From positions 173,414,001-173,478,000 of the forward strand of contig JBITNC010000001.1 of assembly GCA_050084985.1 (NCBI GenBank): DNA of 64,000 bases, in the 5' to 3' direction. Positions 28,501 to 64,000 of the stretch are shown here, in pieces. Made by a program: the position numbers and the translations under genes. Source of the stretch: Nageia nagi. Lineage: Eukaryota > Plantae > Pinophyta. Below the pieces are notes generated by a model, which saw only the letters and a program-made list of their open reading frames with translations, had not been told where the DNA came from and searched no databases. Each line of letters opens with the position of its first letter. Position 1 is the stretch's first letter.

Positions 28501-31500
28501 GGTGTTAACTTTGCTTTCCAAATATTCTTCCATATTTTGCTCCCCTTTATTTTTCTAAAAATATTACTTAGAGTTATGACTACTTCTTTAACCTTGTATT
28601 GGCCATTAGTCCTTAGTTTCCATATCAATTTCCCTTCCTGACTATTGAGCTTGATATTAGAATCATTTAGTTCCTTTTGTAACTGCTTTAGTTATTTTGC
28701 TATTCTACCTCTAATCGACCTATGAATCTGCCAACTATTAGTATCCTTATTAAAATACTTGTCAATTAAGCTCCCTTGATATTTCAAATCCCACTCAAAT
28801 CCTTGTTTATAATCCTTTATTTTAATTAGTGGTTCCTCTTTAAACCATGCATATTCCTAAATGTGTACTTGCTCACCATTTCCTGGGTGCCATTTGGTAG
28901 AATCTTGAATCTAGTACCTTACCACTATTATACCATTCCAAAATGGCAAACCATACGATGGATTCTGGATTCTCAAGATGCAATTTTGGCCCATCATATA
29001 TTTATCCTTACAAGTGTGAACCCACTCCTCTTCATTTTGAGTTATTTACCAAACCAATTTTTGTTTCAAAGCTTGATCCACTTGCTTCATTTTTCTCAAC
29101 CCCAATCCTCCCTGATCTTTTTCCATGCAAACAAAATTCCAACTTACCAAGGTGATTTTCTTCTTTTTTGAATCTCTTAACCATAAGAATTTATTACAGA
29201 TTTTATATATCTTATCACTAATAGTTATAGGTAATTTAAAAGCCATTGCACTATAAACAGGTATGCTTTGAAAAATAGATTTAATGAGGACAAGTTTACC
29301 TACATAGCTTAGACATTTTTCCTTCCATCTTGTGAGTTTATTTTGGATTTTTTGAAGTAACACATCCCAATATTGAGATCTGAGTCTTCCAACAAAAAGG
29401 GGCATTCCTAGATATTTGGTTGACAAATCATCAGTTTTACACCCCCATATCATAGTAATACTCTTCTTACTAGCTTCAAAATAATTAATAAAGTAAATCT
29501 TAGTCTTTTGTAAATTTGTTTTTTGGTGTGAAGCTTTTTCATACATATTTAGATCCTTATTAAATTGAATTCTTCCCTCCTTTCATCTTTACCAACAAAG
29601 ATAGTATTGTCCACAAATTGATGGTGAGTTGTGGCCTTACAGTTAGCGGATGGAATAGTCCCTTTCAAAGTTTGAGTATCCCTATACTATTTCAATTTCC
29701 TCCCCAACGCCTCCATCATTATGATGAACAAATAGGGGGAGATTGGATCTCCTTGCCTAAGCCCTCTTTGGGAGTTAAAATAACATTTTGCTTCTCCATT
29801 GATGATAATAGAAAATATAGGTGAAGATATATACTCTGTAATCCAATTTCTCCAAATTTTTTCAAACCCTAATTTAGCTAAAACCAAATTCAAAAAAGTC
29901 CAACTCACCCTATCATAGGCCTTTTCCATATCCAACTTTACCACCATAGTCAGAGTTTTCTTATTATGCATTGAATGAAGGACCTCGTGCATTTGAATAA
30001 TTCCATTCGTAATCTACCTCCCTTTGACAAATTCATCTTGCTCTATAGATATGATTTGAGAAATTAGTGGTTTTAGCCTTTTCACCATTATTTTTGTGAT
30101 GGTTTTATAGATTACATTGCAAAGACTAATTAGTTTGTAGTCTTTGAACTCCTTTGTTTCTTGTGTCTTAGGGATTAGGGTCAAGAATGTGTTATTCCAT
30201 TGTTTCAACAATTTCTCTTTTTAAAGAATTCTTTTACAGCATACCACACATCCTTCCCTATAATTTCCCATTTTTTTGGAAAAATCCAGCAGGAAAGCCA
30301 TCCGATCTAGGACCTTTGTCAACTTCCATTAGGAATATTACCTATTTGACTTCTTTTATAGTTTGCTATTGTAGTGCTTCATTTTGCTGATTTATTATAA
30401 TTTTTGGTATATTTTTAGTAATTTTTTCTTTAGTTATAGGGTTGTTTCTTTGATCCATTGTTAGCGGGTCTTTGTAGAATCCCTCTACTTCTTACTTAAT
30501 TTCCTTTTCTTCTAAATTTAAAACACCATCTTATCTTTTGATCTCATTAATCATGTTGTAATTTCTCCTTCTTATAGTGGTGATTCTAAACAATTTTGTA
30601 TTTTTATCTCCTTCTTTGATCTAGGCCACTCTAGATTTCTATCTCTAGAGTTGTTCTCCTAAGAGATAGTATTATAGAACTCTGCTAGAAGTATTTTTTC
30701 TTCCATGTCTAGGTCACTTATCTTTCCTATACTTAGTATTCCATTCTCAATTTTTTCCAATTTTTCTTTCATATGAGTCTTCTTGAAATGCACATTTTTA
30801 AAAACTTTTTCTTCTATATTTTCAAATTTATTTTGACTTCATCTAATTTCTTGACTAACCTATACATGGTTGTTCTCTCAATCTTTATCTTCCACCATTC
30901 TGTAAGCATGTACTTGAAGTTTGGATGAGACATCCACATATTTTCAAAACTGAAGGGGGATTTTTTCTTTACTATTTTTTCCATTTTAAGCTCTATAGGT
31001 CTATAATCCAAAGATATTCTTGATAGAGAGTTTAGAATAGCATTGGGGTAATTATCTAGCCATTCTTTGATAACTACAATCCTATCCAATCATCTTTGTA
31101 TAAAACCTGCCCCAATCCATCTATTGGACCAAAGATATCTATTCCCTTTTAAATTGAGATCAATCAAAGCATTATCATCAAGAAAATTTCTAAAGTCTTC
31201 CATACTAGTGGTCATATTGAGTCTGCCTCCATATTTATCCTCTATATTCAACGGAGTATTAAAGTCTCCTCTTATAAGCCCAAGCATAGTTGGAAATACT
31301 TTCTTATGGTTTGATAAAAATTCCCAGAATTATCTTCTCCTCATTAGAAGGTTGGGAGCATAGATTTTAGACATAATGAAACTATAGTTTGAGGACTTAC
31401 ATGCGATTTTCATATATAAGCATCTATTAGAGAGCCATTGTATTCTTTCTGCATCAATTTTCATAGGATCCCATAAGATTTAAAGTTCACATGATTTTCC

Positions 31501-33190
31501 TAATATTGTGATAGCTTCATATTTGGCTTCCCTCCATATCTTTTTTGCTATTTTTTGAATCTTATGTTGCTTAATTTTGGTTTCTTGTATTATTAACATA
31601 CCTGGTTTACTCTCTTTCCATAAGTCTCTAACAATCTTTTATTTTTTGAGATATTCTAGCATATGATGTTCGTCATCTTCTTTTAACACCACTTTGATCA
31701 TGAGTGTTTCTCCTTTATTTTCCTTTTTTCTTCATTGAGTGTAGTCCTCTTTTCTCATCTTTTCCAAATGTATTGTGATCCTTCTTAACATAACTTGTTT
31801 GTATTTTGCATTGGGGATTTGGGTATTCCTTTTTTATTATTCTTCTTTTTCCCTTACATTTCATTTTTGTTTTCTAGCTCCTTATTTTCTATATACTCCT
31901 CTTCTTCATCATCTTCTACTTGATCCTCTTCTTCTTCTTCCTCATATTTCTCCTCCTCTGCATATGCTTCATTTTCTTCATAGATTTCCTTTGATTATTC
32001 TCCCTCATGATTTATTATTTACATGATTACATTTGTATTACATGTCATCTCATCTATCAGTTCTTCCTCATTGGTTGGATTTTGGAATTGAGTTTCTTCT
32101 ATTTGAAAAGCCTTTGTACCTTTTTCTTTTGTTATATTATGCAACACTCAAAAGAATCCCTCTTTAGGGGTGAATCTACCTTTTGTGATTCTCTTTGGTT
32201 CTTATTCTCTAGAATAGGAGTTATCTTATTTTGTATATTTAACTCTATGAACTCTTCATTTTCATCTTGTCTAGATGTTCCAGTTGACTTTGATTTACTT
32301 ATTTATTCTTCCCTTTTTCTTGGCCAATTGGCTATTTTTTCCTCCTATTGGTTTCCATGTTCCTTCCATTTTACGATTAGGCCTATAATAGTAGTTATAG
32401 CTTTATTGATTTGGTCATGGCCCTTGCTGAGCTTGTTACCTATTTCTCCATGGGAAATATTTTTCTATATGTCCATATCTATTACACCCATTACAGATTA
32501 TTGGAGGTATATAGAATGATATATCCTAAATTTATTCTCCTCTTTTATTTTTCAGACATATATTCATCTTCATAGGCTTTGAGATGTCTATATTGGCACA
32601 AAATCTTGTTGTCTGATAAGTCTATCTAGATCTTGTATTTTTTTCAAACATATATATTTACCCATTATTGAAGTAGTACCAACAATTATTTCTTCAAACC
32701 AAAAGTCAATTGAGAGCTCTGGTACTAATATCCACATTAGGATTTTTGTAAAAGAATCATTTTGAGGCTTGAATCCTTCATACCATTTATTTATATGTAG
32801 TTTTCTTTTCTCGAACCACCAAGGTCCTTTTTCCATTACCCAATGAAGATCTTCCTCTAGGTTGAAGTTAAACATTAAGAAATCTTTTGGAAGTATTTCC
32901 ATTTCCACCTCCCCTTTGAGTCTCCATACTATTTTTATCCATATCCTTATATTTTTGTATATTATCCTTGCTCCCATGAACTTTCCAATAAGGGCATTTT
33001 TTTATGGATTCCAGCATCTTGTTGTACATAGTATCTGGGATAATTATTCTTGACATGCCTTTATCAAAGTCTACCTTATACACCTCGATCAACATGCCTA
33101 GTTTGATTCCATTTCGCATATTCTTTTGAAGTGCTTGGTAAAAGGATAATGAAGCATAGGGACCCCTCTATTGGGTGAGTCCATATTGGG
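25556..33190 (-). mobile_element. Degenerate L1-clade LINE: ORF1 (DUF4283-like, ~33119-31700), ORF2 (endonuclease-RT-zinc finger, 31676-~27800), an extra 3' ORF, and an A-rich tail
   Basis: KGPWWF..WILVPEL (ORF1); MTNIIC*NI, GDFNTPL, DRIVV (APE endonuclease); LIPK..ISLCNVIYK, KLDMEKAYDRV, GLRQGDPISPYLF, KYLGMPL (RT). The - strand 3' end reads CCTGTTGGTTCTGATAAACAAAAA at ~25556-25580. Many stops and frameshifts. Confidence 0.9.
25980..27771 (-). pseudogene. Decayed extra ORF (~600 codons) between LINE ORF2 and the LINE 3' end; function unknown
   Basis: ATG (MGG..) at 27771, then DPRVWRILCREGLDRFIEAC..VNTWENR..AIGLPNRGKKV..LPYPWHKVCKILMKYITLDGR..VFGTHIIL, a charged low-complexity middle and a C-terminal part ending ~25980; fragments match ORFs 27348..27635 and 26404..26784. 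Confidence 0.55.
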
Positions 33191-39100: not shown

Positions 39101-42100
39101 TTCAATCCAACTGAGATAAATATGGTCTAGGGTATCATGGACCTAAGATTAAACTTATAGAAGAATAATTTTTCCATCTTAATATTCTAGAAGAGGAGGT
39201 ATCGTACAATGATGAGCATGATATCAATTTGTATTTTTGTCCATCTAGTCCTCATGCTTCGAAGTGTTCCATATCAAACAATTTCTTCCACAAGCTTTCA
39301 TATGACCTCATATTTGATGTTTCGATGATTTTCCTTGATGGTTTATCACTTTTCATCCCTCTCTTGGATTGTAACTTGCAAAATTCTATCAGTCCTTTAT
39401 TTACAGATTTCTCTTCTCATTTGTTGGGTCCTTCTCTTATTTCAGGTGATGCATCTCTTTCTTTTAATTACCCTGACGAAGCTGAATCATTAATCTTTGC
39501 TTATTTCATCTATATTTTGGACAAATATGATTATGCATACCTTCCCATCTTTAAGCAGTTAGAGGATGGATCCCACATGCACATAGGAAAGTTAATTGAA
39601 GTAAATATTAGTGAAGATCCCATAGATCCAAAGATAGTCTATTTGGGGAATGTTTTAGATGAAGCAAAAAGGGATAAAGCCACATAAATACTAAAATGGT
39701 ACACTAAGATATTTTCCTTTAGATATCAAGATATGCCTAGCATGGACCCTAATGTCATAGTCCATAATATTGTCACTCGTCAAAATGCCAAGCTCGTTAA
39801 GTAGAAACCTAGGAGGGTCAATCCATCACTATCACTTCAAATTAAGGATGAGATTTAGAAGCTTTTAGATGCCAAGTTCATTACTTATATTGATTATCCC
39901 TAGTGGATGTCTAATATGGTTCCCATCGATAATCTTAAGGGTCATATTAGGGTTTGTACAAATTTTAGAGATCTCAATGTGGTTGGCCCTAATGATGACT
40001 TCCCATTGCCTAACATCGACACTTTGGTTAAAAACATAATGAGATATAAGATGTTGTCACTCATGTATGGATTCTTAGGTTATAATTAGATTTGGGTTTC
40101 CCCCCAAGACCAACACAAGACAAAATTCACTATGCTATGGGGGAATTTTTGTTATAAGGTCACAACATTTGGACTAATTATGACTTATGTATTCTATGAT
40201 ATGATGCATGAAATCATGGAGGACTATGTAGAAAATTTGTTGGCTAAGTCTAGAACCAAAGATCAACATTGGGAAGTGCTAGAAGAGTCTTTGAGAGATT
40301 GCTTAAACATAACATCAAATTAAATCCTAAGAAATGTGTTTTTAGTGTTACATCCAGCAAACTCCTAGGGTTCATCATTTCTAAAAGAGGTATAAAGGTT
40401 GATCTTAATAAAGTTACTGCCATCACAAGCATGCCTCCTTTTCATGATATCAAAACCTTAAGAAGTCTTCAAGGTAAGATCTAGGCTATTTGAAGATTCA
40501 TAGCTTAATTATCAGATAAGTGTAGACTATTTAATGAACTCCTTAAGAAGGGCATATAGTTCAATTAAAATAAGAGTTTTCAATGAGCTTTCAATGAAAT
40601 CAAGCAATACTTACTTAACCCTCTAGTGTTTATTCCTCCTAAGGATAATTCCCCCTTCTATTTATATCTTTTAGCTACTGATTTTGCACTAGGAGTCATG
40701 TTAGCCCAAAAGAATGAGCAAGGAAAGGAGAAGGCTATCTATTACCTTAGTCACATACTTGTGGACTATGAGCTTAGATGTGTTTACATTGAGAAGGTAT
40801 ACCTCATCCTCATCTTTATTGGTAAGAAACTTTGGCATTACATGTTAAATCACACCACATATATGATTTCTAGAGCCAATCCATTGAAACATATGATGAG
40901 AAATGCGTATCACAATACATGCACTACCAAATTGATCATGTTTCTTTCAGAATTTGACTTAATGCTTATCAACCATAATTTAGTCAAAGTTTAGGTCATA
41001 GTAGATCAGTTAGTAGAGGCAACCATCCAAGCTACTACCCCTCTTGAGATCACCCTCCTTGATGAGGATGTGTTCAACATTGATGAGATTGAGGAAGTAG
41101 TAAATACCCAATAGGACTATGATATTACTATGTATTTGATGGGTAAATATGTGAACAAGGGGAAGGGGATAGATTTATCTTCTTCACTCCCTAGGGGTTC
41201 CCTATCATGTATTCTTTCAAACTTGACTTTCTATGTACGAATAATAATGCAAAATATGAGGCATTGATCTTGGGCCTTAAGATAACCATCGAGCTAAAAT
41301 TTGAAAGATCGCTCATTTATGGAGACTCTAAATTAATTTTCAATCAAATTATGGTTAGCTATCAATGTCACAATGAGCTTCTAAAGACTTATCAAGATAT
41401 GGCACTGATATTGCTAAAATGGTTCAAAGCCTATAAAATTGGGACAACCCCCCAATCATCTAATAGGTTTACTGACACCATGGCATATTTAGGATCACTT
41501 ATCCCTCCCAATCCTCATAAACATATTCAACATGTAGAGATAATGATTGGAAATAATTGATACTTAAGGCATCACTACCTCAAGGTCTACCCTCAACCTC
41601 AGTTAATGAGATTACTATTGAATTACATGACATGTCGTACAAGTAACTACATGAGTATTTGAAGTGGAATGTCACACCTCCTAACTTATCAGCAGGTGAA
41701 AAATGGATGTTAAGATAAAATGCTTCCCATTACACCATATTAGGAGATATTTTCTATAAACAATCATAGATGGAGTCCTCCTACATTATTTAGAGCTTTA
41801 TGATGAGGCTATTGCTATGCAAACTTGTCATGACAACATATATGGTGGGCACTTTAATGGAACTGCTATTGCCAAATATATTCTTAGAATGGGATATTAT
41901 TGGCCTACCATAGAATGAGACTATCAAGAATATGTCAAAAAGTATGTTAAGTGTCAACAAAATTCTCATTTGCAACATCTACCTGCTCAAGCACTTAACT
42001 CTATCCAATCTATGTGGCCTTTGGCATAGTGGGGATTTGATCCTATAGGGTAGTTTGTACCTCCCTCTTCAGGTGGCCATAAGTTCACTATCATTGCGAT

Positions 42101-42538: not shown

Positions 42539-45500
42539 TGTTACAATTTGTAATGTAATGTTTCTCCTTAATGTAAATTCACTTAATACTTAAAGTATCA
42601 TTAGATACCTTAAAGTATTAAAGGAATAAAAAGAAGAGAAGAATTAAAAATAGGTAAAATATTAAAAATAGAAAAAGGATTAATTATAGAATGAGTTTCT
42701 TCTTACAAAAAGAGAAGAACTTTCCTTTCTCAAGTTACACAATTGTAATGCAAGCTTTGCTATAGATTTAGAGTGTGAGAGAGAGAAGAGATTTTGTAAG
42801 AGAGGTCCTTGAGAATAATAAAATCTTAGTTAGTAGGCATATTACTAAGGACGGAGGAACCACTTTATATCTTATGTTATTTGTAAGATTGGCTTGAGTT
42901 ATTTTGATATTATGTTGATGTTTAAAATGCCTTCTTGAGATCTTGGTAGAATAGAAGTTAATTCAGAAAGAATTAATTTTTTCAAGTCATATTAGAGCAA
43001 TTTTTGGAGGCTTCTCATCAACATCTTTGAAGGTCCTTCCTCTTCTTTCTACATCTACTTTGTTTAGGTAAAAGGAATTGAAGGTATAATCTTCCTCCTA
43101 CCTTGTTCATTATCAAATTTTGCTTTATTACTAACCAATTTGTGGTTATTTTATTTAGCAAAATTTGTTCAAAGTAGATATTATTACCATATTTTTGGCT
43201 ATACTAATATGTTAGTTCTATTTTTTAAGCTATTGTTATGCATTACTTTTACTAACAATAGTTTGTTAGTTGCAATTTTTTTAAAGTAAAGTTGGTTAAT
43301 GTTTAGCAAGTAGATTTGTTTAAATTTAGCAATAATAAGTTATTATAGATTAAATTTGCAAGTTTCTACTTAGTATAGAGATAATTAAAAGTTTTGTAAT
43401 TTTTTTAACTATAATGTTATTATTGTAAAAAAACATTTACAATACTAATATGTTTGTAAAAATAAAATTGCATGTAAATTACATGTATGCATTTTTTTAA
43501 AATAGAAATTACATGCATGCATTTTTTAGAGAACTTTATATATATAGTTCATTTTATTAAAAAATAGTATGAGCTAAAGGTTGCATTAATTGCTATTTAA
43601 AGTTTGAGTCTTTATTTGCTACTTTTACCATAAATGCAAGTATTGTAAGGAATTTTTTTAAAAATAGCATGCCTTTAAGTGAGAACTTAATTATGCATGG
43701 ACTGATTAATGTTAATTGATTATACATAGATTAATGTTAACTAATTATGCATAGATTAATGTTAATAATGCATGGATTAATTATGTTTTGTATTAATGCA
43801 TGTTTATTGCTATGGACACATGTGGTAGGAATAATTTGTTTTCTTGCATTATTTTTTTATCCTAATGCATATTTCTAAATAGATTTAAAAAATAAAAAAG
43901 TAGTATGGTTTATTATTTTGACCTTATACATGTGGTTGGATAAAAATTCACTTAAATACTTGTTTCTAAATGTTATGTTAAATTGTAGATGAGGAATTAT
44001 TCTAAATCTAATTTTTTAAGTAACAAGGGGGAGAATTCCTCAATTTAGATAATGAACCTTTGTATAGAGATCCATTAGGGGTTATAGCAAAACCCATTGG
44101 ACTCTTAAGCTCATTTATTATTACTTAAAATTAATGAACCTTTGTAAAAGAGTTCTATTAGGGGTTGTAACAAAATCCATTAGACTATTTCGTTCATATG
44201 GATGATGTGAGATGTAGTTTCATTTTCAAAGCACTTTATTTAATTTGCACTTTTACTTTATATGCAAAGTATGCAAACATTGAAAATAGTTTTCCCTAAA
44301 GTGAACACATCTATATGTTTTTTTTTTGTAACATAACTTATTTGGGGATCCATGAGGTGAGGATAAGGTAGATTAGAGCCTTTTAATCTGACGATCTAAG
44401 TGGTGAAAAATTTGTACTCCTTAATTGCCCCTAAATCCTCTATTGGTCTAGATTTAACTCCATATAGGTTGATAGGCATGTGTGTAGTGATACCACATGT
44501 TTGCTCATCTATTCAAGATTATCCTGATAACTTAAGAAATTGAAAACTTAATAAAGATAATTAATTTGATCGATCAAGGGAAAAGGAACTTGAAGCTTAT
44601 AATACTAAGAATGATTTGGTAATTTCTATGATCTTTCATGCAGTTTTGGATGAGATCCTCCTCATGATATCTTCTTCAAACATTGCTAAAGAAGCTTGGT
44701 ATAAAATAAAGAGTATCTACCTTGGCATAAAATTTTCTATGAGGTTCATCGTTCTTTAGAAATTGCTTCAATCACTTCAAGAGAAAATGAAAGTGTGGCT
44801 ATATATCTGAATAAGGTTGTTGATCTTAGGACCCATCTAGTGGGGTGTGGTTGCAATTGGATCAATGATGAGTTTATGACTTTCGTCATCCTTCAAATCC
44901 TCTCTACTAAATTTAGTCAGTTTATGACTGTTATTGAAATTAGGCTTGATAATGACAAAGAAGTGTTCTCCTTGAAAAATCTATCAAAACTTCTCTTGAA
45001 GCATGAGAAAATGGTTAACAATAAGGTGTTGATAACCACTCCTAAGGAGCCTTTGAAGCCTAACTTCAAAAAGAAGAATCATAACCAAAAGAAAGGTTCT
45101 AATTCTACTAAGAAGAACTTCAAGAAAGGTGGAAACAAGAAGAATTATGATCATGATAAATCAAAGCCAAATTTGATAGAAATTGTAATTTTTATGGCAT
45201 CTATGGTCATATGGATGTTTATAGCTTCAAAAAGAAGAAAGGACAAGGTGAAAAAGGATCTAGAAAACCAAAAAATCTAATAATAAGAATAAAAATAAGA
45301 ATTTTATTTATGTTGCTGCCTTTTACTCATAGTCTCACACTTTATCAAATGATTGGATTGTTGATTCTGGATACGCTAATCACATGTGTTTTGAAAAGAA
45401 TAAGTTTGAAAATTTTCAAAAGTATAGAAAATATGTAGTTGTGATAGGTTATAGTTCAATCCTTGAAGTTCAAGGTATTGAAAGTGTGTTAATACAAGGA

Positions 45501-48500
45501 AAGATTCTTAAGAATGTGCTTTATATGCCTAAACTCACTATGAATCTCCTTTCTATAATTCAAGTTGTAAGAAAAGATTAATCTTTTAAGATTAACTCAC
45601 ACTCTTGGTGCATGAAAAAGGGTCTTTCCATTTTAGTTAAAGGATTAGTGAAAGATGACCTTTATATTATGGATAAATCTCCAACAAAGATGTGCCTTGC
45701 AACTAATGTTTGTTCTAAAGGCAATCTTTGGCACCATCAATTACACCATCAAAATCATAAGAACATTCAAGTCATGAAAGATCATAAACTTGTGGAAGGT
45801 TTGCTTACAATATCACCTACAATTAGTCTTTGTGAGAAGTGCATTCTAGGTAAAATAATTTAGAAAAAGTTTTCAATAGATAAGAAAACTAGAGCAATTC
45901 AACCTCTTCAGCTTGTGCATATAGATTAGAGTGTATTATATCTTGACCTTATTGATGACTTTAGGAGGATGATATTTGATTATCTTATAGAGCACAAGGA
46001 TCAAACCTTTGATAGGTTCAAAGATTTCAAAACCTTGGTAGAAAATCATTTTAAATTCAAAATTAAGATGTTAAGATTTGATAATAGTAGTGAGTATAAT
46101 AGCAATGAATTCAAAGATTTTTGTACTAAGTATAAAATCAAGAGGCAGTTTACTATCCCTTATACTTTCAACAGAATGGTGTAGCTGAAAGGAAGAATAA
46201 AACCATTCAAAAAATGGCAAGATGTATGTTAGAAAATCTTCCTAGATTCTTATAAGATGAAGCTATAAATACTATAATCTACATCTTAAATAGGTGTCCT
46301 ATGAAAGTAGTTGAAGGTAAAACTCTGTATGATGCATGGTAAGAAAAAAACCTAACATCTCACACCTTAGAGTCTATGGTTGTGATGCCTATGCTTTTTT
46401 TATTTCTCAAAAGAGAAATAAGTTGGATAAGAGATCTAAAAAGTGTATCTTTATGGGCTATGACAATCAACATAAAGGCTATAGGCTATACCAAACTTCC
46501 TCTGATGCAGTCTTGGTATCAAAGGATGTAAAGTTCAATGAACTACCTAAAAAGTCTACTTCTTGTGTGAACCTTGATGAGGGTGATGATTATTCTATTA
46601 CACCTAATTGGTTGGATGTTATTATGGATTTATCACTTAAAGAATAAAACTCTCTAACACAAAAGATAACAAAGAGTATGACCATTAATAAATCCTTATT
46701 TACCAAAATTGATAGCAAGAATGAGCCCTCATCTTACAAAGAAGCTTCAAAGCATGAGTGCTAGGTGAATGCAATGAATATGAATTATGAGGCTCTAATG
46801 AAGAATTAAACTTAGGATTTGGTCTCTCATCCTAATGAACGAAATTTGATTGGTAATAAATGGATTTTTAAAGTTAAATATAATTCAATTGGAGAAATTG
46901 ATAAATACAAAGCAAGATTAGTAGCTAAAGGTTTAACTCAAAAATATGGAGTTGATTATAAGAAAACCTTTTCTCGAGTGCCAAAGATGCCTACTGTTAA
47001 GGTAATACTTGCTCTTTCAATAGTATAAAGATGAAAAGTTTGTCAAGAGTGCTTTTCTTAATGGTGACTTAGATGCGAAAATCTACATGAGCCAAGTAGA
47101 AGGGTTTATCATGGAAGGTAAAAAATATTTTATGTGCAAGTTAAAAAAATCTTTATATGTACTTAAGCAAGCACCTAGAGCCTAGTACAAAAACATTTTA
47201 GGATAATTTGAGGATATTAAATTTTATAAATGCTTCTTTGACACAAATCTTTATGTGCTCAACCAAGGACAAGATTTGATCTTGATTCTTTTCTATGTGG
47301 ATGATCTATTGATTATAGGTAATAATATAGTCCTCATACAAGACTGCATATCTAAATTTAATGTAACTTTTGAAATGATTGATCTTGATCTATTGCACTA
47401 CTACCATGGTATACAAGTGTACCAATACAAGGATTATACTTATCTTAGTCAATCCAAGTATATATCTAATATCTTGCAAAAGTTTAGAATAGAGGAGCGC
47501 AAGCATTTTGCAATTCCAATATCTCATGTAATCATTTTATCTCTTAGTTCTAACTCCTAATTGGCAAATGCTATGTCTTACAGAAAACTAATTGGTAGTC
47601 TTCTTTATTTGACTATCTCTAGGCCAGATATTTTCTTTTCCATCAATTTGATAGCCCACTTTATGCAAAATCCATATGTTGAGCACTTCAATGTTGTTAA
47701 GCACATTTTGAGGTATGTTGCAAGCATTAAGGATATTTCTCTCAAATATGATAAGTTTCCCTTCTTTGTTCTCTTAGGATTCTCATATTCTGAATATGTA
47801 GGAGATAGAGATGAAATAAAATCAACCTCTCTTTATATGTTAAGCATTGGTTTAGGTGCTATCTCTTAGGCTTTTAAGAAGCAACCTACTACTATTCTCT
47901 CCACCACTAAGATTGAATATCATCCAATATCAGTTGCAACCTAAGAATACATTTGGTTGAAACATCTTCTAAAATAACTTAGGTATGAGCAAGTTCATCC
48001 ATCTCAAATTTCTTCAGATAATCAGTTAGCTATTGCTTTGGCAAAGAATCATATTTTCCATTAGAAAACTAAACATGTTAAAATCCAAGCCCACTTCATT
48101 AGAGAGAAGGTTTTGGATGGTCTTTTACACTTGTAGTATTGTCCATTGGTCTTAAACTTTGATGATTTAAATCACCAAGCCCCTTCCTAAAGCTCAATTC
48201 TATAAGCTTAGAGAGTCTATTGGGTTGGTGAAGTTACCTAAAAAAGGAAGTAAATATTGAATTATTATTGAATCCAATGTATCTACTTCTTTCTTAATAA
48301 AGTTGTTAAATTTTTTTTATTTATATACTTTGTTTATACATTCATATGTTTGGTAACTGTAAGTATGGGCTTGGCATCTTAGTGATTACTTATAGTGTAC
48401 CATAAATCTAAGCTCATTATATTAGGAAGCAAGTTCTTGATGAAACAACTATAGCTCCATTCATTTGACTTTATCTCTCTTGATTTATTCACTAGTCACT

Positions 48501-52114: not shown

Positions 52115-55100
52115 TGTAGGATTGAAGATATCAAGTTGTGGGAATCCCAATGAGTCCTAATGTTCCAAGATGGTCATCATACTTGCACCATCTCAAGGAG
52201 GACCCCACACCTAAACGTTGGCTTACTAGGCTTCCAAGAACTCCACATTGGCACTTCAGATTGATTGGTACCCCAAGTTGGCATTACTCGACCTTATGTT
52301 GCTGCATTGGCATTTCGGGATATCATAATGGTGCATTAAGTCACTAGACCCATCTAGATGTCCAACATTAGATTAGAAGGCTTATGAATGAATTCGGGGT
52401 GAATTATTTATTAGAGCTTATAAATACTTGAGGGGAGATCATTTGGATGTTAGTTGAATGATTGATATTACTACTTCTTATCTGTGTGACTATCCAAGCT
52501 TGGCGATGTTGAGTATACTTTCCTAAACAAAGCGTTTAAAGGATAACTGGGTTGAGGGATCCTAGTTGTCTATGGTATAGGTGTAATACCTTACCCATTG
52601 GGTGGACTTTTAGGGTCTATTCCTTCCATTCATTTGGATATCCAGTGTTCGTGAAGAGCCCATTCGATGGGGAGGAGATGTGGGCTAAGCGAGCGGATAT
52701 GTCCCATTGATTTACTTTGATTAGTGTATGTTTGAATTGGCTTGGGAAGCCTATAGTTGCCTATGGGCCATTGTATGAGATTATTTTGCATTCCATATTG
52801 TTAATACATATTTGAGATCTTAAGATCTCATTCTTATTATGTGATTGATGCTCATGTGCATGTGTTAGGATTTAAACCATTTATTTATGTTGATTTTCTA
52901 GTGTATGGTCATTATAATGGTATCCATTAATAATTCATCATTGTATGTATTCATGAGGTGTAGGTACTGAATGATAGTGTATAATGGTTAACATCAGGTG
53001 TGAGGGGCTTCGAATATCCTAGGAACCTAATGTATGGTTTGGGGAGTTATTGGATGTCTTAGAGTCCCAATGTTGGAGCCTAGGAGGTGTGGTTGAGGGT
53101 TTTGGAAACCTTAGTCAATCTATTTATTATATTCGATACAAGTGTTCATTTGGAATACTATAAGTGGTATCAAAGGTTAGATATAGGAAACCTATCTATG
53201 AAACTTAGAATCCATAACTATTATACTAGATCTAGCACCAGAAAGGAGATGGCATCTACTAGGAAGAGTGAAAGATCAACAATTGAAGAAGCATTAGAGA
53301 GGGAGCTATTTGAATATGAGAGGGAGACTCATGAAGTATTAGGAGATAGACAAAGATCTAAGGTAAGATCAAGACCATGGATGGTGGATTTGCATGAGAT
53401 AGAGTCAATTAGGGATGCGAGGGAGGCTCACGAAGTGTTTCAAGAGAGGTTGAGATTCGAAGAGAGGTGAAATGTAACATTAATTCAAGGCTCCACCTTA
53501 GAACAAAGGTTCAAGGAAATGATCTCTACCATTAATAATATGATCAGATCCATGTTTACCATGCAAAGGTAGATTGAGCGATGTTGGGATCATCTTGAGG
53601 CAAAAGGGGGACCATAAGGCCATGAAAGATGAGATTCAAGATGTGTCCAAAGGGATTGAGGTGAAAGGGAAATCCCATAACAAGCTAGTAGAGATGAGGA
53701 GCATCCATGTTGGGGTTGATATGAGAAGGAAAGCTTTTGATAGGCCAAGAATAACCAACATGCACCACATTTGGCTAGAAGAGGTAGGGAGCCCCCACGT
53801 AAGGAACAGGAGGGTCATGAGGATGCATGGGAAGAAGATTAGGAGGATTTGGAGAGAAGTATGAGGAGGTATCAGAGCTTGAGCAATTGGGAGTCCACTC
53901 ATATAGGTTTATTACAGCAATGGAACCAAATTTGATGAGATTTCACTCCTATTGGGTGACCCAAGGTAGTAAACCTTTCTTAAGATGGTACCTAAAGGAG
54001 GATGTGGGTCGAATGGAAGACTAGTTGATCATACCTAGGTCATCAAAGCCTATGTTTGCATAAAGGACCAAGGAGGTGGCCAAAGATAGGGCTCCTAGCC
54101 CTTTAGGGATGAATCGACTATTCAAATAATATTCATAGCTAGATCTGGGGTTGAGGTGAGATATCAACTTCAATGGCTATTTGGAGATGCTAGGGTTGAA
54201 GGGTGAATCTCACATAGACCATGACATATCAATAATGCAAGGTATGAGAGGAGAGATCTCTAGCATCAATTCAATAAGATGTAGATCTTAATGTTCAATG
54301 GTGGGAATATGATAGTTAGGGCATGGTTGTACTAATTACATACATACTTCACTCTAAACCCTAGTATAGTTGAGGAGAATGTAATGCATTTCACATCGGT
54401 ACATTTGGAGGGAGATGTGTTGGAGTGGTGGTGACATGGGATGGTGAGTCAAGGATACTCATTCATCACCACTTTTGATGAGTTTACCATGAGGATGGCA
54501 AAGAGGTTTGATCAAAAGAGGTAGGATGATTACTTTTAGGATCTAACTACATTGAGGTAATCAAGAAGTGTGGATGAGTTTGTAAATGAGTTATAATGGT
54601 TGGTTGGCATGATCCATCATTTGCCTGAGGAGCATCTAGTTTTCATTTTTGTTGAGGGATTAGAGGAGCTGCTTAGAGGGATGGTAAAGGTGTCCTCTCC
54701 AAGGAGCCTAAATAATGTTATTTGAGCATCCTATGATTTGGAGCCCACTATGAAGTCCCTCAAAGGGGGATCTGAATCCAAGGGACTTATTAGCTGAAAG
54801 CCATTTTTAGAAGGTCCTAGCAAGGCCAAGGTAGCACCTTCATCCAAGCTAGAGTAGTTGGATGCAACCACACAAAGATGATTGAGAGAGGAGGGCAAGT
54901 GCTTCTTCTAGAAGAAGCCTTGGAAGCATAAACATCATTTCTTGGGGAAAGGATAAGCACATTATATAAAAGTTCTCTCAAGAGGTGAGTTAGATGATTC
55001 AAATTTGGATATAGGAGCTAATACAGGTAGTACAGGATCACCTAGAGTGGCAAGCACACTTGGAAGCATGATCGCTTTTTTGCATGGGGTGAAGAAGTAT

Positions 55101-55470
55101 TTTATGTTGAAGGTCATTAGGAAAGCAAGAGGCCAATATGTCATGATTTTTATTGATCCAAGTGCTTCACATAACTTCATAGATGATGGCTTTATGGAGA
55201 AGAAGGGGATGAGAACCAAGGCATTTGAGGGGTTCAATGTTTCTAATGCTAATGGAGATCTCACATTGGTGGATCATATTGTGGAGTGATTTGGTGTGAG
55301 ACTACAAAGTTGTGTGGTATGAGAGGACTTTTATTTATACCCACTCAAAGGTTATCCACACATTATCTTGGGTGTGAAGTGGTTGTTCGATCTTGGAGAT
55401 ATCCACATGAACTACCAAAAGCTCACCATGAGCTTTGAGATTGATGGAATTACTCACATGTTGCAAGCAT
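52115..55470 (+). mobile_element. Degenerate Ty3/Gypsy element (LTR ~52115-53162, PBS, gag, protease), interrupted by a CACTA element
   Basis: Met-tRNA PBS TGGTATCAAAG at 53165; gag HLEGDVLEWW (~54400-54430); protease IFIDPSASHNFI and HIILGVKWL. The LTR start is approximate. Confidence 0.8.
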
Positions 55471-55953
55471 TACTACATTTTAGTCATTTTTCATCATTTA
55501 ATGCATCAAAATTTTGCTCTTTGATGCTATGACACTTTAAGTGTCAAAACATTTTTTGTATTTTTGACTCCCTTATCGACGCATTACATGACAAATTACA
55601 TGATGCATTACCTGACACATAGGTTAATGAATTTTTCTATGTATTTTTTGATGCTTTAAGTGATGCATTACTTGACTCTTTAATTGATGTTTAATTATGA
55701 AAATCTTGACCAACATAAGCATGTATATACATTTTCACATTTTGAATGATTACATATATATGGATTAATTGATTGAACATCTTAAACATGAAAATACATG
55801 TAATATATTAATGAGTAATTGATTGGAAGTAATTTAAAAATTACAAAACATTCAAAAAAATAGTATAATTCAAATTCATATGCAAGTCAACCTCAAACCA
55901 CCAAAGATATCAACATATATAATGTTTAATTACTCAAATGTACATGTAATATG

Positions 55954-58900
55954 TTAATCACCATTATTATCTTTTTTATCAAGAATACATACAACATGTT
56001 TCCCTCTTATATCACAATCAATTACAAACATCTTTTCATCTAGTACATTTGGACCAAAAAATATTTGACTATAATGTTGTGGTAAAACATATGGCTCTTT
56101 TTCTTGAGGTAAATATCGTGTAGAGTCGATTGCATAATAACCACTAGGTATGTCATGCAATATTGATCTTATATTTACAAATCCTTCAAACCATTTACAT
56201 TTGAATACTACACATTTGAATGATCGTATCATTTCTTGAATTTTCCTAACATATTATATTTTTCCTTCTATCAAGTTTGTATCTTTTGTACTTGCATGAC
56301 TTGCTTAATCAAAATCAACCATCACTCCACTATCAAAGGTCATTCTATTAATATCTTTCTTTTCAATTCTAAAGTGTTGACTATATGCCCACGTTGTAGA
56401 AAAATATAATGTCTACATACATTTTTATGTAAATGTTATATTGGTGTAAGTATTATATCTATATTATAAAAAAAAATTAAATTTAGGTCCATAAGAATTA
56501 ATGAATAATTACCTCATAATTACATCCATCAGTTATATTTAAAGCATCTTTGTATATTTTTTTTCTGCACCTTTAGTTAATTTCTTTTCAATTGCTTACT
56601 TTTTTCATGATCTTGGACACTCTTTTGGCCAATTCTCATCTCTTAAATGTGGAGGTATAGGTGTACTCCTTGGATGTCCACTATGGAACAAAATACATTG
56701 TGCTGGAATTTCACTTCTTTTATTTTCATACATTTTAATCCATTCTTTACAACTCTCCATATTCATCATGGTAAAATGGTTTATAAACTCATATATGTCA
56801 CAATCTATAATTTTTTTGAATACATAAAATGAACTTGTTAGTAATTATTGATTAAATTAAATCAAAATTACATGTACATAGTACTTATTATAAATTACTA
56901 TTATCTAAAATGTAGTTATAAGTGCCTTTATTAAGAGCATATGATCTCCTCTTTGTTTCTAAAACCTCCCCTTCTAATTTACCATTGTCTTTGTCTGCTT
57001 GTAACCATATCGTTGGATCTTAATCATGAATTTGAGATAGAAACTCACTTACATAAAAAAAATACTATTGCACAATATATCCTTCACACTTAGATCCTTC
57101 TGGTCTTGAATTTTTTCTAACAAATCTTTTAAGTACTTTCAAAAATGTTTCTACAAAAAATATGCTTCTAGTACTTATAACACCTGCTATTTCAATATCA
57201 TCTACTAGGTGGATCAATAGATGAACTTGTATATCCATAAAAGCAGTAGGCATTTCTTTTCCAAATTTATAGATAATTTTCACAATTTCTCTTCACCATT
57301 TAAGGATTTCATTGACATATATTTCCTTTTAAGTCAACCACCTAGTTATGAAAATATAATTAATATCATAAGATGTATTTAAATTATATTGAAATCTACA
57401 AACAACAATAAATGCACTATATATTTTAAGGGAATAGTATCGTAAATAGCATCAAATAGCTTAGACATAATGATATTCAACCAATTATGTATCTTAAATC
57501 AATAGATAAAATCATACATCAACAAATTGCAAGTGAAAAATTAATCTATAGAAAAATTTATATTAATCAAAATATAGATGAATAAAATATATATAAATAC
57601 AAATGTATTTAAGGTTTTTGATATGCATATAATATGAGCATACCTTCAATAAGTTGTGATAATCATGAGACTTAAATCCTATCATTTTTCCATCAATTGT
57701 GAACATTTTTCTTAGAGATGATGCATATCCCATTGAAATTTTAATGGCTCTAACAAGATTGTGTAGAATGTTCACTTCATATTTGGTCATAAGCCATGAG
57801 GCTAGAATAGGTGCATTTGTTGTTCCATTTGCATTTTTTGTTACCTAAAAGGTACATTTTATTTTGGTAGCCTTTAAAACCATATCTTAGTTGAATACTA
57901 TTTGATTTTTTGCTTGTTGTATACTGGTATAAAGAAGATGCAACATTCTTTACAATATGCATATGATCCCATAATTATGTCACTAATAAATCATTCTAGT
58001 ATTCTAGATTATAAATATGGACAATTTGTTTATACTTTAAACTATATGCAAATGTAAACATTTAATTGATAAAATAATTGAATTAATGACATGTTAAAAA
58101 GAATGTTTGATATAGTATTTTATTAAATTTTACCTTGAGGTAAGTCATCTTTTTTAACAATAACATCCTCTAGGTCTTTAGCAATACCTTCCTTAAATGC
58201 TTTTATCCAACAAGGTTCTTCACTTTCTTGGTACTTTTTTCAATCAATCCTTAGGAGATGCTTATTTGGAATTTTTGATGTGATCAATTTGACCATTAAA
58301 GTGTGATTTCATATTTCAAAAATTATGATCTGATGGTAAATATTTTCTATGGCCAAAGTATTCCATCTTCTGCAAGTGTTTTGAATATCTTGTTGTAAGA
58401 TTTTTTGCACACTAGGGATAAGCATTATAACCTTTTGTATGCAAGCCTACAATACATTTTTATTAGAGAATAACTACTATATCTAATTTTAAGAAATTAA
58501 ATATTTTAATATAAATGTAAATGTAATAGAAATTATATATACATACCTAAATAAACACGAAGACCTGGATAATCATGTATAGTCCAACATAATATACCAT
58601 ACAATGTGAATGATCTTTGTTGGATGGGTCTACTTATGTCAATCACATTCTAAATTCCATTCCATAATTGCATTAGTTCATCAATTAATGGTTCAAGGTA
58701 GATATCCATATTTTTCACCTAATTTGGTTTAGGAACTAAAAGAATTAACATTAAATATTCCTTTTTCAAGGAAATCCATGAAGGTATGTTATAATTTACA
58801 ATAACAATGGGCCACACTAAATAATTAGATGATTGTATGGAATATGAATTGGCACCATCAATTGCTAAACCCAACCTACGACTTCTAGGTTCATCCTAAA

Positions 58901-59790
58901 ATTTATTGGGCCACATATTTTCGACATGTTTCATTGCTTTGGAATCTTCAAAAATGCATAATACACAATCTTCAATTATATTTTTTGCATTCCAATCCAT
59001 ATATTGTACAAGTGAATCATACTTATACATTCTAATGAATCTATTGATAATTGAAAGATGGTGAACAACCTTCAAAGGAACATTTTTTCTTGTAGTTCCT
59101 AGATAATATCTATTTGCACCACACTTTGGACATACAGTCAATTTTTCATATCACCCTTTACATAATATGTAATCAATAACACAAGCATGGTATGAAACAC
59201 ATCTACATCCTTAAAAAATTTTCATGCTTTTCTACATAAAGAAGGGATGACATTGTCACTTGGAAGCAATTTTTCATTTAGTAACCTATAATACAAATAA
59301 AACCATAAAATTATTATGTATATAATAAACAAAGTTTGAAAAATATTCAATAAATTTATAAAAATATAAAAATAATTACATACTTCAGAAGATCATTGAC
59401 ACTTGTATTTGACCATCCATTTTTGGCCTTTATATTCATGATGAGTAGGAGTGCTTCTAACTTGGAAATAGATGCTCCATTATATAAAGGTGTTTTGCAA
59501 GTAGCATACATGTTATTATTTTCTAAATCACCTCCTCTTCCATCATCATGTGCATGAGGATTATCATTCATGTCTATATTTGTATCATCTTCATGTGTAT
59601 AGATTGATTGAAATAAATTATGCATTGCATTCTATTATTGATCATGAGCATTATAATGTCTTTCATCATTTTCACTATCTTAATTCATGATTTGAATAGA
59701 AGCCATTGGATTTGGATTTGTAATGAATTCTACATATGCATCCCTAGTTAATATATTCTTTAGTTGCTTCTTTTTTTCCAATGAATATTT
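55954..59790 (-). pseudogene. CACTA TnpD-like transposase (Transposase_21, DUF4218, DUF4216), multi-exon and decayed
   Basis: TPLYNGA..NGWSN, CPKCGANRY, RLGLAIDG, DIYLEPLIDELMQLWNG, WTIHDYPG, MHIVKNV, GFKSHDYH, FMDIQVHLLIHL, RPEGS, FKCKWF..EPYVLPQ. Confidence 0.9.
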
Positions 59791-60119
59791 TTCAATGTAA
59801 GGTTGGTGTATAAGATATTGTATTTGACTCATCTTCTGTATCTATTGCAATATGATGTGTCTATGAAATTTGTTACTACAAATAATTAATATAATTAAAA
59901 AATAACTTTAAAAAGTACATAAGTTTAAGTAAAAATTGCATAAAAAACATGAGTATAAGTAAAAATATATCAATAATTCCAATAATTAATATCTTCAACA
60001 AATAACATCCCTTAAGGATCTTCAACAAAATAGCAAATAACATAGGCTAAATTCATGATTGCATGTCGTATTACAAATATTATTCAATTTCTACTACAAT
60101 CTCATTTTTATTTATGCTT

Positions 60120-61710
60120 TTATCCTATTTTAATAAATACATTTGGATCTTCAGAATCCATATGTCTCTTACATGTTGGAATATGTTTATTGATGTTGTA
60201 ATGCACTAAGATCTCATCACTAGAGTTAAGAGTTACAATAGGAGCCACACTTACAATACTTTTCAATTTTCTAGGCATAAAGTCATATTTATCATTTGCA
60301 TATTCCATAAAATCATATTTTACTAGATTTTCTATGCCTTTGGAGTTGTTTATATATCTTGCAATGTTTCAATGTATCTTTGGTCGACCATCAATGTACA
60401 TATGTTTTACATCTTTTATTTGTGATGTTGCATTTACACACATACCATATTTATCCATACTAAAGACATATGATGTTATTATCCTCCAGTCCATAATATT
60501 GTAGATTGGCCCATAAAATGGCATCAATGTTTCTTTTTTAGTGAATGGACAAACTCGTACATTTGTTAATATAAATAAACCCATGCTTGCATTAGGTATA
60601 TTAGAAGGTTTAATCATATATGAATGACCACAATAAGTGAATTATTCATAAGATTTGGAAAAGGTCTTCTGATTGACCATGCAGCATATGCCTTGCTATC
60701 ATAGGTAGACTTGTATAAATGTAAAACATTATGTGTTAAATGCAAATTACCAACACTCTCATCTGATAGCTTGATTGGCTCAACATTTGGTGGTTGTAAT
60801 CAATGAAATCATCCTTAATTTTTTTATTTTTGTACATTATTTTTCTCTAACTTCATATAATGAATCTACATATTTTGGCATTCTAACCTTAGCATTCTCT
60901 TTTAGATGTTCAAACATCTAGTAGGTATAACTAGACCAATGGGATATTTCTTAACCGTTGGAGGTCATGCTCCCTCTATATTAGGTAGACCATCATTTTC
61001 ATAATAATGTATTTCTACATATCCCCTTTGATGTTTTTACTAACCCTTACATCTTAAACAACCACATACAATAAGTGCTCTATAATAAAGAGTGATAGGG
61101 TCACTAAATCCTTCTATCACATTTTCATTCATTTGTTCAATTCCTAGAAATGCACATCCTATTAGGTACAACTCTATGGCTACTTTATCTATTCTAATTG
61201 ATGACTTAATTGAGGTTAATAAAAATTTTCATCAAGCATAATATAAACATCAAAAAAATAAGAAAATCCTTTATGAAAAAATTGAAAATTAGATTAAATA
61301 GTCATGCATGCTAATTAATTACTTCATGATCATCATCATCCTCTGAATATGAAGATTGAAGATGATCCTATAACATTATCGATGATATTAACTAATTAAT
61401 AAATGCATATAATTTCATAAAAGTGAAAATTTAATTAATTTTAAATTTCTACTTATCTAATAAAATTTGAGTATACATTCATAATATATACCTCGTTTTC
61501 ATATGAAGATATGTTTGTTCTCCTAGGATGAATGTTTGGTGCTATTTGATTTTCATCGTCTGATGATGAAATATCTATCTTCCTCTCATGAATTAATGGT
61601 GTTATAGGATCATCTTCATATGAGAGATCATCAACCCTTCTAGCCCTTGACAAATTAGTCACCAAGCCAATGATGATGTCGCTAATAATGCCACTAACAT
61701 ACTTCAACAT
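60120..61710 (-). pseudogene. Decayed SET-domain (protein lysine methyltransferase-like) gene, apparently inside the CACTA element; SET domain at ~60140-60620
   Basis: ORFs 60369..60617 and 60120..60308 are in one frame, separated by a single TGA. Read-through gives IKPSNIPNASMGLF..FYGPIY..YIDGRPKIH*NIARYINNS..IVSVAPIVTLNSSDEILVHY, i.e. the SET motifs GxGLF, YxG, RF/YINHS and EIxxxY in the correct order. The upstream extent (to 61710) is tentative. Confidence 0.7.
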
Positions 61711-61725
61711 TGAGCAATATAATTA

Positions 61726-62767
61726 GAAATCAAGGTTGTAAAAAATAAGGATTCAAAAAAATTAAGATTGTAAAAAATCAAGGTTGTGAAAAATTAGGGT
61801 TGTAAAAAATCAAGGTTATAAAAATCAAGATTTTAAAAAATTAGGGTTGTAAAAAATTAAGGTTTAAAAAAATTATGATTGTAAAAATTAGGGTTATATA
61901 AAATTAGGGTTGTAAATAATTAGGGTTGCAAGGTTTTAAAAATCAAGGTTGTAAAAAATTAGGGTTGTAAAAAATAAGGGTTGTAAAAATTAGGGTCGTA
62001 ACAAATCAAGGTTGTAAAAAATTAAGGTTTTAAAAAATTAGGGGGTTGTAAAAAATTAAGGTTGTAAAAAATTAGGATTATAAAAATTAGGGTTGTAAAA
62101 AATTAGAGTTTTAAAAAATTAGGGTTGTAATAAATTAGAGTTTTAAAAAATTAAGGTTGAAAAAATTAGGGTTGTAAAAAATTAGAGTTGTAAAAAATTA
62201 GGGTTTTAAAAAACTAGGGTTGTAAAAAGTCAGGGTTGTCAATATTCAAGGTTGTAAAAAATTAAGGTTGTACAAAATTAGGGTTGTAAAAATTAGGGTT
62301 GTTAATAATTAGGGTTGTAAAAAATTAGGGTTATAAAAATTAGAGTTATAAAAATTAAGGTTGTAAGAAGTTAAATTTTTAAAAAAATTAGGGTTTAGGG
62401 TTGTAAAAAAATAGAGTTTTAAAAAATTAGGGCTATAAAAAATTACGATTGTAAAAAAATCATGGCTGTAAAAAATTAGGATTTTTAAAAATTAAGGTTG
62501 TAAAAAATTAAGGATTTAAAAAATTAAGGTTGTACAAAATTAGGGTTGTAAAAATTAGGGTTATAAATAATTAAGGTTGTAAAAAATTAGGGTTGTAAAA
62601 ATCAAGGTTGTAAAAAAATAGAGTTTTAAAAAATTAGGGTTATAAAAATTAGGTTTGTAAAAAATTATAGTTATAAAAAATTAGGGTTGTACAAAATCAA
62701 GGTTTTAAAAAATTAGGGTTGTACAAAATTAAGGTTGTAAATAATTAGGGTTGTAAAAATCAAGGTT
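61726..62767 (+). repeat. Minisatellite of 15-16-bp units, consensus AAAAAATTAGGGTTGT
   Basis: Dozens of tandem variants of TTAGGGTTGTAAAAAA / TTAAGGTTGT / TCAAGGTTGT. Confidence 0.95.
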
Positions 62768-63535
62768 TATCATGTAAGGTTTAGGGTTATTGATGTAGGG
62801 TTTACAATTTAGGGTTTAGGGTTTATGATGCAAGGTTTAGGGTTTAGGGTTTATAGTTTATGATGAAGGGTTTAGGGTTTAAGATGTAAGGTTTAGAGTT
62901 TATAATGGAGGGTTTAGAGTTTAAGGTTTAGGGTTTATGATGAAGGGTTTAGGGTTCAGGATGTAGGGTTTATGATGAAGGGTCTAAGGTCTAAGATGTA
63001 GGGTTTATGATGCATGGTTTAGGGTTTATGATGCAAGGTTTAGGTTTAGGTTTTAAGGTTTAGGGTTTAGGATGTAGCATTTAGGATGTAGGGGTTATAA
63101 TGAAGGATTTATGATGCAAGGTTTAGGGTTTATGATGTAGAGTTTAGGATTTATGATGTAGGGTTTAAAGTTTATGATGAAGGTTTTAGGGTTTAAGATT
63201 TGTGATGTAGGGTTTATGATGAATGGTTTAGGGTTTAGGGTCTAGGATGTAAGGTTTAAGGTTTAGGATGTAGGGTTTAGGGTTTATGGTTTATTATGAA
63301 GGATTTATGGTTTAGTATGTAGGGTTTAGGGTTTATGATGTAGGGTTTAGGGTTTACGATGTAAGGTTTAGGGTTTACAATGTAGGGTTTAGGATTTTTG
63401 ATGTAGGGTTTATGATGAAGGGTTTATGATGTAGGGTTTAGGGTTTATGATGTAGGGTTTAGGGTTTATAATGTACGATTTAGGGTTTAGGATGTAAGGT
63501 TTAAGGTTTATGATGAAGGGTTGAGGATTTAAGAT
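62768..63535 (+). repeat. Interstitial telomere-like array: TTTAGGG mixed with TTTATGA and TGTAGGG heptamers
   Basis: Runs such as TTTAGGGTTTAGGGTTTATGATGTAGGG; ordinary sequence resumes after ~63540. Confidence 0.93.
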
Positions 63536-64000
63536 TTGAACAACCTATATGTCTACTTAAGAAAATATAATATTTATCTTTTTTACAACTTTACAAATAT
63601 ACATCAAACAATCTATGTGCCTAATTACTTTATCATGCAATTCAATATGGTTATCATTTTTACAACTTCACAAATTGATTAAATCATATTAATATGAGCG
63701 ATGTGAAGATTATAGTTAAAGTTTTTAATTTTCCTATAATGTATACTATTTAAGTGTTAAAATAAGGTAGGCTAGTAAAACTATAAGTTTGGTTTACCAT
63801 ATCTTACCAATGAGTCACATAATGGTATATTGAAGTGGTTAGTACAACTCTACCTCCACTATTAATAATATAACCCTTGCCTAACTAATGCAGGCTTCAG
63901 TCTCAATATGGTAGTTAAAAAGGCTTCCTAGGGTTAAGTCTCGTCATGGTGACTAAATGTGTCCCCATTTTGCAATGAGGCATCGAGAATGTAATCGGGT

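Follow-up and report, generated by a model that had tools for sequence, protein, structure and literature searches.

The window that we analysed, a stretch of 64,000 nucleotides from Nageia nagi, contains a SET domain coding frame on the minus strand (60120..60656, with the core at ~60617-60198). The initial annotation had described an ordered SET signature in one frame broken by one TGA, and we located every quoted motif (IKPSNIPNASMGLF, FYGPIY, IDGRPKIH*NIARYINNS and EILVHY) in a single minus-strand frame at 60641-60120, which terminates at 60122-60120 and carries the internal TGA at 60371-60369 as well as a further stop at ~60644. The suggestion that the TGA derives from GGA agrees with the other copies of this sequence, in which a plus-strand A>C change at 60371 gives GGA in 96-99% of the contig depth (809/822, 818/852 and 427/432 in three runs), and in the five close relatives described below the residue in question is E, E, G, R and G. 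The plus-strand frames of the same stretch held nothing resembling SET, and no second SET copy was found within the window. Stops and frameshifts occur repeatedly in both the SET gene and the neighboring transposase gene, in keeping with the decay noted earlier, and from its reading frames we judge this copy to be dead.

As had also been reported, the SET frame is co-oriented with, and just upstream of, a TnpD-like transposase. Starting ~260 bases downstream on the same strand, we found a decayed TnpD-type gene with AT-rich introns (55970..59860), which opens with an acidic linker exon from 59860 and matches Transposase_21 (~58961-58560 and the next exon; Pfam E 6e-35), DUF4218 (~57337-57026; E 2e-20) and DUF4216 (~56223-56035; E 3e-5, below cut-off). 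An AT-rich minus-strand spacer of 259 bases (59861..60119) separates the SET stop from the transposase acceptor, TTTCATAG at 59868-59861, which is in phase 0. The left (3') terminus is inferred to be the plus-strand TACTACA at 55471..55477, which would be CACTACA but for a single C>T change; at ~55471 a Gypsy gag-protease frame is cut short, Gypsy gag Pfam matches lie upstream of the end, and short subterminal repeats resembling T[AG]ATGCAT[CT]A occupy 55499..55700. A search of 60901-64000 did not recover the right (5') terminus or a target-site duplication (score 27 against a shuffle mean of 26), and this end of the element may be outside the window. Pfam matched neither TnpA nor ULP1 in the six frames of 55471-64000, a stretch that represents a decayed copy and may be cut by the window end. 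Taken from sequence, the combination of Transposase_21 with DUF4218 and DUF4216, the subterminal repeats and the multicopy status described below identifies the element as a member of the CACTA (En/Spm) superfamily.

The 5' part of the element contains two tandem arrays (61727..63535), an array of 16-base units (61727-62767) and a telomere-like, TTTAGGG-rich array (62764-63535). The word AAACCCTA, which we presume to be telo-box-like, has 32 of the window's 38 exact matches within 62199-63488 (1.3 kb), compared to 3.2 expected in the whole window. Host telomere-repeat factors, or a protein of the element itself, may bind to these arrays. Contig depth over the 16-base array was very low in two of the sequencing runs (X9 and X10). 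Beyond the arrays, 63535-64000 is a high-copy stretch in which no terminal repeat was recognised; a fall in per-site depth between 63842 and 63901 may correspond to the 5' end of the element.

The rest of the window holds other mobile elements and one likely host gene. An inverted hAT duplication at ~4180-11940 has zf-BED and DUF659 on both strands (6142-7382 minus, 8737-10095 plus) and mirrored tandem repeats around 7842-8278, while ubiquitin-specific protease ORFs (zf-UBP and UCH; E 1e-32) on the minus strand at 19810-22775 represent the window's only likely host gene. Remnants of a LINE (DUF4283, RVT_1; 29000-33000), a Gypsy element (RNase H; 40587-41560), a Copia element (gag, SH3, RVT_2; 44705-47560) and a Gypsy gag-protease region (53000-55470) follow, the last of which is the insertion site of the CACTA element. 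The plant LTR and LINE remnants and the TTTAGGG-like arrays mark the host as a land plant.

The window peptide, queried as 173 residues with X at the stop, scored E 0.047 and 14.6 bits against the Pfam SET profile (PF00856; curated cut-off 22.4) and matched no PDB sequence, so the window copy alone would not settle its identity as SET. A word-indexed search returned five close relatives, all with open frames and 63-75% identical to the window frame, and an exhaustive search of 1.84 billion representative proteins gave 68 matches at E<=0.001. One of these (P0049) is a bacterial repeat protein matched by chance and was excluded from the alignments. Among 67 new relatives, 24 matched Pfam SET at E<=0.01 and 14 exceeded the curated cut-off, and a profile built from 26 distant relatives, from which all those at 60% or higher identity had been excluded, recovered the window frame at E 8e-46, with the runner-up in the window's six frames at E 1.3. 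The SET assignment made from the letters alone thus stands by way of the relatives, while the window copy by itself stays under the cut-off. The majority letters of the other copies, scored against 21 distant relatives, were better at 7, worse at 4 and equal at 2 of 13 changed residues, which is only mildly informative.

Structure prediction was carried out on two relatives rather than on the window copy, and both gave a SET fold. The AlphaFold (AF2) model of P0002 (pLDDT 77) matched SET8 best, with Z 12.2 and an rmsd of 2.5 over 118 aligned residues, as did the model of P0009 (pLDDT 83, pTM 0.79; Z 11.3, rmsd 2.5, 123 aligned). The structural matches listed for both models were SET or PR domains throughout (Foldseek E 1e-5), and SET8, Set1, SET7/9 and EZH2 were tied within ~1 Z with none standing out as closest, so the substrate cannot be read from the fold. 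When compared to solved sequences, the family profile matched Legionella LegAS4/RomA (E 3e-7), a fungal EZH2 (5e-3) and MLL1 (0.02), and the best solved plant match was ATXR5 (E 0.48). No usable match to the window piece was found in the ESM Atlas, where P0002 reached only scores of 0.82, and NCBIfam and PHROGs each matched just 1 of the 23 family members. Since viral SET folds match the models no better than cellular ones and a phage tblastn search with P0045 gave no match, a bacterial or viral origin of the family is not supported. Together, sequences and models indicate a divergent SET family without a close characterised member.

The absence of obvious Cys-rich pre- and post-SET regions, which had been remarked on in the window frame, extends to the family: all 23 near-full-length members retained for motif counts have at most one Cys past the last Tyr, and pre-SET, post-SET, SRA, PHD and AWS domains, the kind of flanking domain by which host plant SDG classes (SUVH, ASH, TRX, E(z), ATXR5/6) are told apart, had no match in the relatives or in the window frames. 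This is also the case for SET8, SET7/9, PR domains and Legionella RomA/LegAS4, which share the SET fold without Cys-rich flanks but stand at 13-25% identity to the family, with no orthology. Under motif names that we take from general usage and anchor on LegAS4 residues, the family keeps the GxG of motif I (G19 in 19/23, G21 in 23/23), the Y/F-x-G of motif II (column 42 being F in 12 and Y in 11 members; G44 in 22/23), the Asn of motif III (N98, 19/23) and the catalytic Tyr of motif IV. Tyrosines Y47 and Y65 are invariant (each 23/23), and N92, E143 and the last Tyr, Y148, are each present in 22 of the 23. The canonical R-F/Y-x-N-H-S is not kept, with R replaced by G in 19/23 and H by S in 21/23, and in many members the C-terminal tail is 2-15 residues long, which leaves almost nothing to close the cofactor pocket.

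The degree of lysine methylation is governed by a Phe/Tyr switch position. Two residues before the last Tyr, 21 of the 23 members have V, I or A and none has Tyr, so multiple methylation is predicted. Six residues, Y135, Y159, N181, Y220, S158 and Y231, are described as having been mutated to kill LegAS4 in the accessible text of bioRxiv 10.64898/2026.05.29.728679. Counted by eye on the alignment, Y135, Y159, N181 and Y220 fall on family columns 42, 65, 98 and 148, while S158 and Y231 are without a conserved counterpart. Active LegAS4 has Phe at the His place of the NHS motif, and the loss of this His in the family therefore does not exclude activity. Judged by these residues, the family probably consists of SAM-dependent, multi-methylating enzymes, and we consider it likely that the SET protein is an active enzyme.

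To place the window copy, we used a tree of 42 rows drawn from the 68 matches, including the close relatives, P0093 and an outgroup. The window copy belongs to a six-member group (100/100) that falls outside a Riccia clade (98/95), in an unresolved set with Psilotum, while the Ginkgo relative lies beside the long outgroup branch and many diverged subfamilies are present. Among 20 distant relatives looked up, an organism was attached to three clusters, namely Ginkgo biloba, Psilotum nudum and Riccia sorocarpa. The Psilotum relative is an ORF of an assembled transcript, and Riccia has three near-identical proteins, annotated as 'SET domain-containing proteins', on different large scaffolds. The Ginkgo relative (P0028) is the annotated gene Gb_21150, a protein of 415 aa with SET behind a long Cys/His/Asn-rich N-terminus, and is possibly a domesticated member. 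Liverwort, fern and Ginkgo members, at 22-38% identity, retain the Tyr, Asn and Gly residues of the cofactor and lysine channel, and by these sequences the SET family is conserved from liverworts to Ginkgo.

Evidence on copy number came from contigs of 100-350 bases from public sequencing runs, one of them an air metagenome, aligned to the window. In four public runs with 15,000-42,000 contigs each, 55600-61620 was covered throughout, and the 1481 bases of 59780-61260 alone drew 1287-2011 contigs per run, with 30/30 bins covered in three runs and every bin of the spacer covered by contigs of other copies. In run X1 the summed depth was ~1200 for SET and 630-2100 for the transposase; it fell from 906 to 150 to 53 across 55902-55000, the last value being that beyond the terminus, although such depths cannot be read as copy numbers. 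At 60071 the aligned depth goes down to 2-15, and the loose ends there represent a diverged version of the window's continuing sequence. SET, spacer and Transposase_21 gene alike are thus covered by thousands of contigs, as expected if the segment is multicopy, and the tens of different contigs at each position across the SET/transposase junction rule out a single-copy neighbor. Linkage to the CACTA transposase is supported insofar as multicopy cover is continuous from one gene to the other, but we found no contig or second locus that spans both coding sequences. A search of viral and prokaryote contigs for a second locus returned none, and one metagenome-contig match in a bacterial locus was dismissed as a chance match in a membrane-protein ORF. 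As far as aligned sequence goes, membership of the SET gene in a multicopy plant CACTA family, and its linkage to the transposase, are strongly but indirectly supported, and we regard the gene as very probably element-borne.

These observations bear on whether the SET segment is a piece of a host gene picked up passively (pack-type cargo), or lies next to the transposase by chance, in either case without a role for the element. CACTA elements do capture host gene fragments, the window copy is decayed, and the Ginkgo relative is annotated as a gene. On the other hand, the SET domain is whole and intronless, is open in the majority of the family and has diverged into many subfamilies; the near-identical Riccia records lie on separate scaffolds; and no solved host enzyme is close, ATXR5 being the best plant match. 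We therefore consider passive capture very improbable.

The initial annotation had also proposed that the gene extends upstream through frameshifts, and comparison with other copies located them. The window lacks one base at 60656 and another at 60913/60914, as judged from the loose ends of other copies; relative P0005 reads straight across the first, and we infer a third frameshift near 60820. Across the deletion at 60656, the SET frame joins a conserved pre-SET segment with a YD..aYGaW motif (60657..60799), which is preceded on the minus strand by a basic, charged linker (60800..60913) and a frame with a C-x-C-x2-C-x13-H motif at 61066-61007 (60914..61192). The stops at 60966 and 61041 in the latter, like that at 60371, are sense codons in other copies. 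Once the shifts are mended, a single predicted frame would run from ~61190 to 60120 through the C/H motif, basic linker, pre-SET segment and SET domain. Further upstream on the same strand are two candidate exons proposed from sequence, one of 45 bases, acidic and bounded by AG..GT (61323..61367), and an acidic first exon ending ENE|GT (61492..61700), which lies downstream of the tandem arrays.

A transposase-associated zinc finger normally opens CACTA transposases, and the C-x-C-x2-C...H segment presumably resembles this domain in its spacing. With X at its three stops, the segment had no match at E<=1 to Pfam, including the transposase-associated domain PF13963, and no zinc finger motif was found in the same ORF among the longer relatives. 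Immediately after its acceptor the transposase exon encodes an acidic linker, and 60120-59860 contains neither a start nor a zinc finger that would belong to the transposase. Within the basic linker we picked by eye a candidate alternative donor, AAG|GT at 60888/60887, whose phase 0 is that of the acceptor at 59861, an agreement expected by chance in one case of three. An alternative intron at 60887-60795 was rejected and read as coding, as it is A-rich (48% A, 30% T) compared to the T-rich introns of the element (44-57% T). The SET segment does lie upstream of the transposase as had been claimed, but it is probably not free-standing, lying instead within the transposase gene, after a transposase-type zinc finger and before the transposase body.

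We propose that the locus encodes a CACTA-borne accessory lysine methyltransferase that is alternatively spliced with the transposase and methylates the element's histones to keep it expressed, and we assign this reading a probability of about 0.5. The zinc-finger exon would be common to both products. Splicing from 60887 to 59861 (~1.03 kb, both sites in phase 0) would remove SET and yield a zinc finger-TnpD protein, and the unspliced form, read through to 60120, would yield a protein of ~360 residues made up of zinc finger, linker and SET. The latter would fill the slot held by TnpA in flowering-plant En/Spm and may be steered to the element by the zinc finger and basic linker, or by TnpD, where methylation of histones on the element's own chromatin would keep it expressed. 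According to the accessible text of PMC13547354, En/Spm elements use alternative splicing to produce two proteins, families vary between split and spliced layouts, and flowering plants are the only group with reported TnpA-like domains. Shared-exon alternative splicing, as predicted from frames and splice sites, seems to us slightly better than an even bet, while a histone mark that favors the element is a more tentative part of the proposal, somewhat short of even. A broader version, in which an ancient and so far undescribed CACTA clade of non-flowering land plants (liverworts, ferns and gymnosperms) has, as its alternatively spliced second product in place of TnpA, a zinc finger-SET enzyme belonging to a separate family, which would trimethylate a histone lysine on the element's tandem arrays and thereby counter silencing, is rather doubtful at present.

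Among the alternatives, the one that survives best keeps a functional element-borne SET protein that does not mark histones for the element: its substrate would instead be the transposase or a host protein involved in silencing, or it would serve as a dead lysine-binding decoy. The replacement of R by G and of H by S in motif III and the short tails would fit such a role, as would the presence of SET7/9 and PR domains among the tied structural matches and the lack of reader domains (PHD, chromo and SRA) seen in six frames. On the other hand, conservation of the cofactor and lysine-channel residues at such low identity argues against a dead enzyme, and active LegAS4 lacks the NHS His too. We consider this explanation unlikely, though a serious one. 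An improbable second possibility is that zinc finger-SET forms a separate head-to-tail gene or terminal cassette, with TnpD starting from acidic exons 1-2 or from its own start, similar to the split TnpA/TnpD of Arabidopsis. The interchange of split and spliced layouts noted in PMC13547354, as far as its accessible text goes, and a zinc finger without a profile match would allow it, but the SET stop is separated by just the AT-rich spacer from a good acceptor that opens the acidic linker, with neither a start nor a zinc finger in between. A single SETMAR-like SET-TnpD fusion protein is, like passive capture, very improbable: the two genes share a strand at close range, animal SET-transposase fusions exist and the SETMAR structure is among the structural matches, but relatives P0003 and P0006 end where the window SET frame ends, none of the scanned relatives has a transposase domain, and a search of proteins of 728-2075 aa gave no fusion and one unrelated multi-SET protein, which is weak evidence.

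The initial annotation knew of no plant CACTA family with a SET gene, and our literature search, which lay outside Repbase Reports and subscription journals, likewise found no paper on a land-plant CACTA element with SET. SET cargo does have precedent in other DNA transposons. In the accessible portions of the sources, HarbingerS and MuDR elements of Phytophthora have SET genes (PMC12730594), as do Helitrons and red-algal Plavaka elements (bioRxiv 10.1101/2025.02.11.637652); the last are filed under EnSpm/CACTA in that preprint and treated as a lineage distinct from EnSpm proper in PMC12730594. Plavaka PAG2 resembles the window element in being an accessory SET gene in an EnSpm/CACTA-filed transposon, with a function that is only proposed in both. 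As described there, however, PAG2 joins a DNA methylase to SET and forms part of a cassette of three genes, whereas the window element has SET with a putative zinc finger, probably inside a land-plant Transposase_21 gene, and no methylase or Plavaka domain was matched in it. HarbingerS, Phytophthora MuDR and Helitrons are likewise DNA transposons with a SET histone-methyltransferase gene, but they belong to other superfamilies and hosts, and no shared-exon layout is described for them in the text available.

Maize En/Spm and Arabidopsis EN/SPM3/7, as presented in the accessible text of PMC13547354, share with the window element a Transposase_21-type TnpD, a CACTA-like terminus (putative in the window element), subterminal repeats and likely two products per unit, but their second product is TnpA, whereas that of the window element would be the SET protein, with no TnpA or ULP1 match in the part of the element that the window covers. 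The initial annotation's comparison with VANC, an anti-silencing factor of VANDAL elements, holds for that of VANDAL21 in that both are transposon-encoded accessory proteins predicted or known to act on chromatin, with arrays as possible binding sites. As far as the sources go, VANC differs in belonging to the Mutator superfamily, in being non-enzymatic and in having DNA hypomethylation shown by experiment, while the role of the window SET is a proposal. In the accessible part of bioRxiv 10.1101/2025.02.11.637652, VANDAL elements are the only ones for which an effect on their own chromatin is described as demonstrated.

The SET cargo of other transposons is annotated only, and a small, intronless family with a core of ~170-260 aa and intact, transcribed members in land plants makes self-written histone marks testable. 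Fern, gymnosperm and bryophyte genomes would gain a SET class that has so far gone uncounted, its ORFs passing there as host proteins. If the broader version above is true, a member of the family may have been domesticated, perhaps as Ginkgo Gb_21150, and a transposon-owned histone writer may have aided the rise to high copy number in giant gymnosperm and fern genomes.
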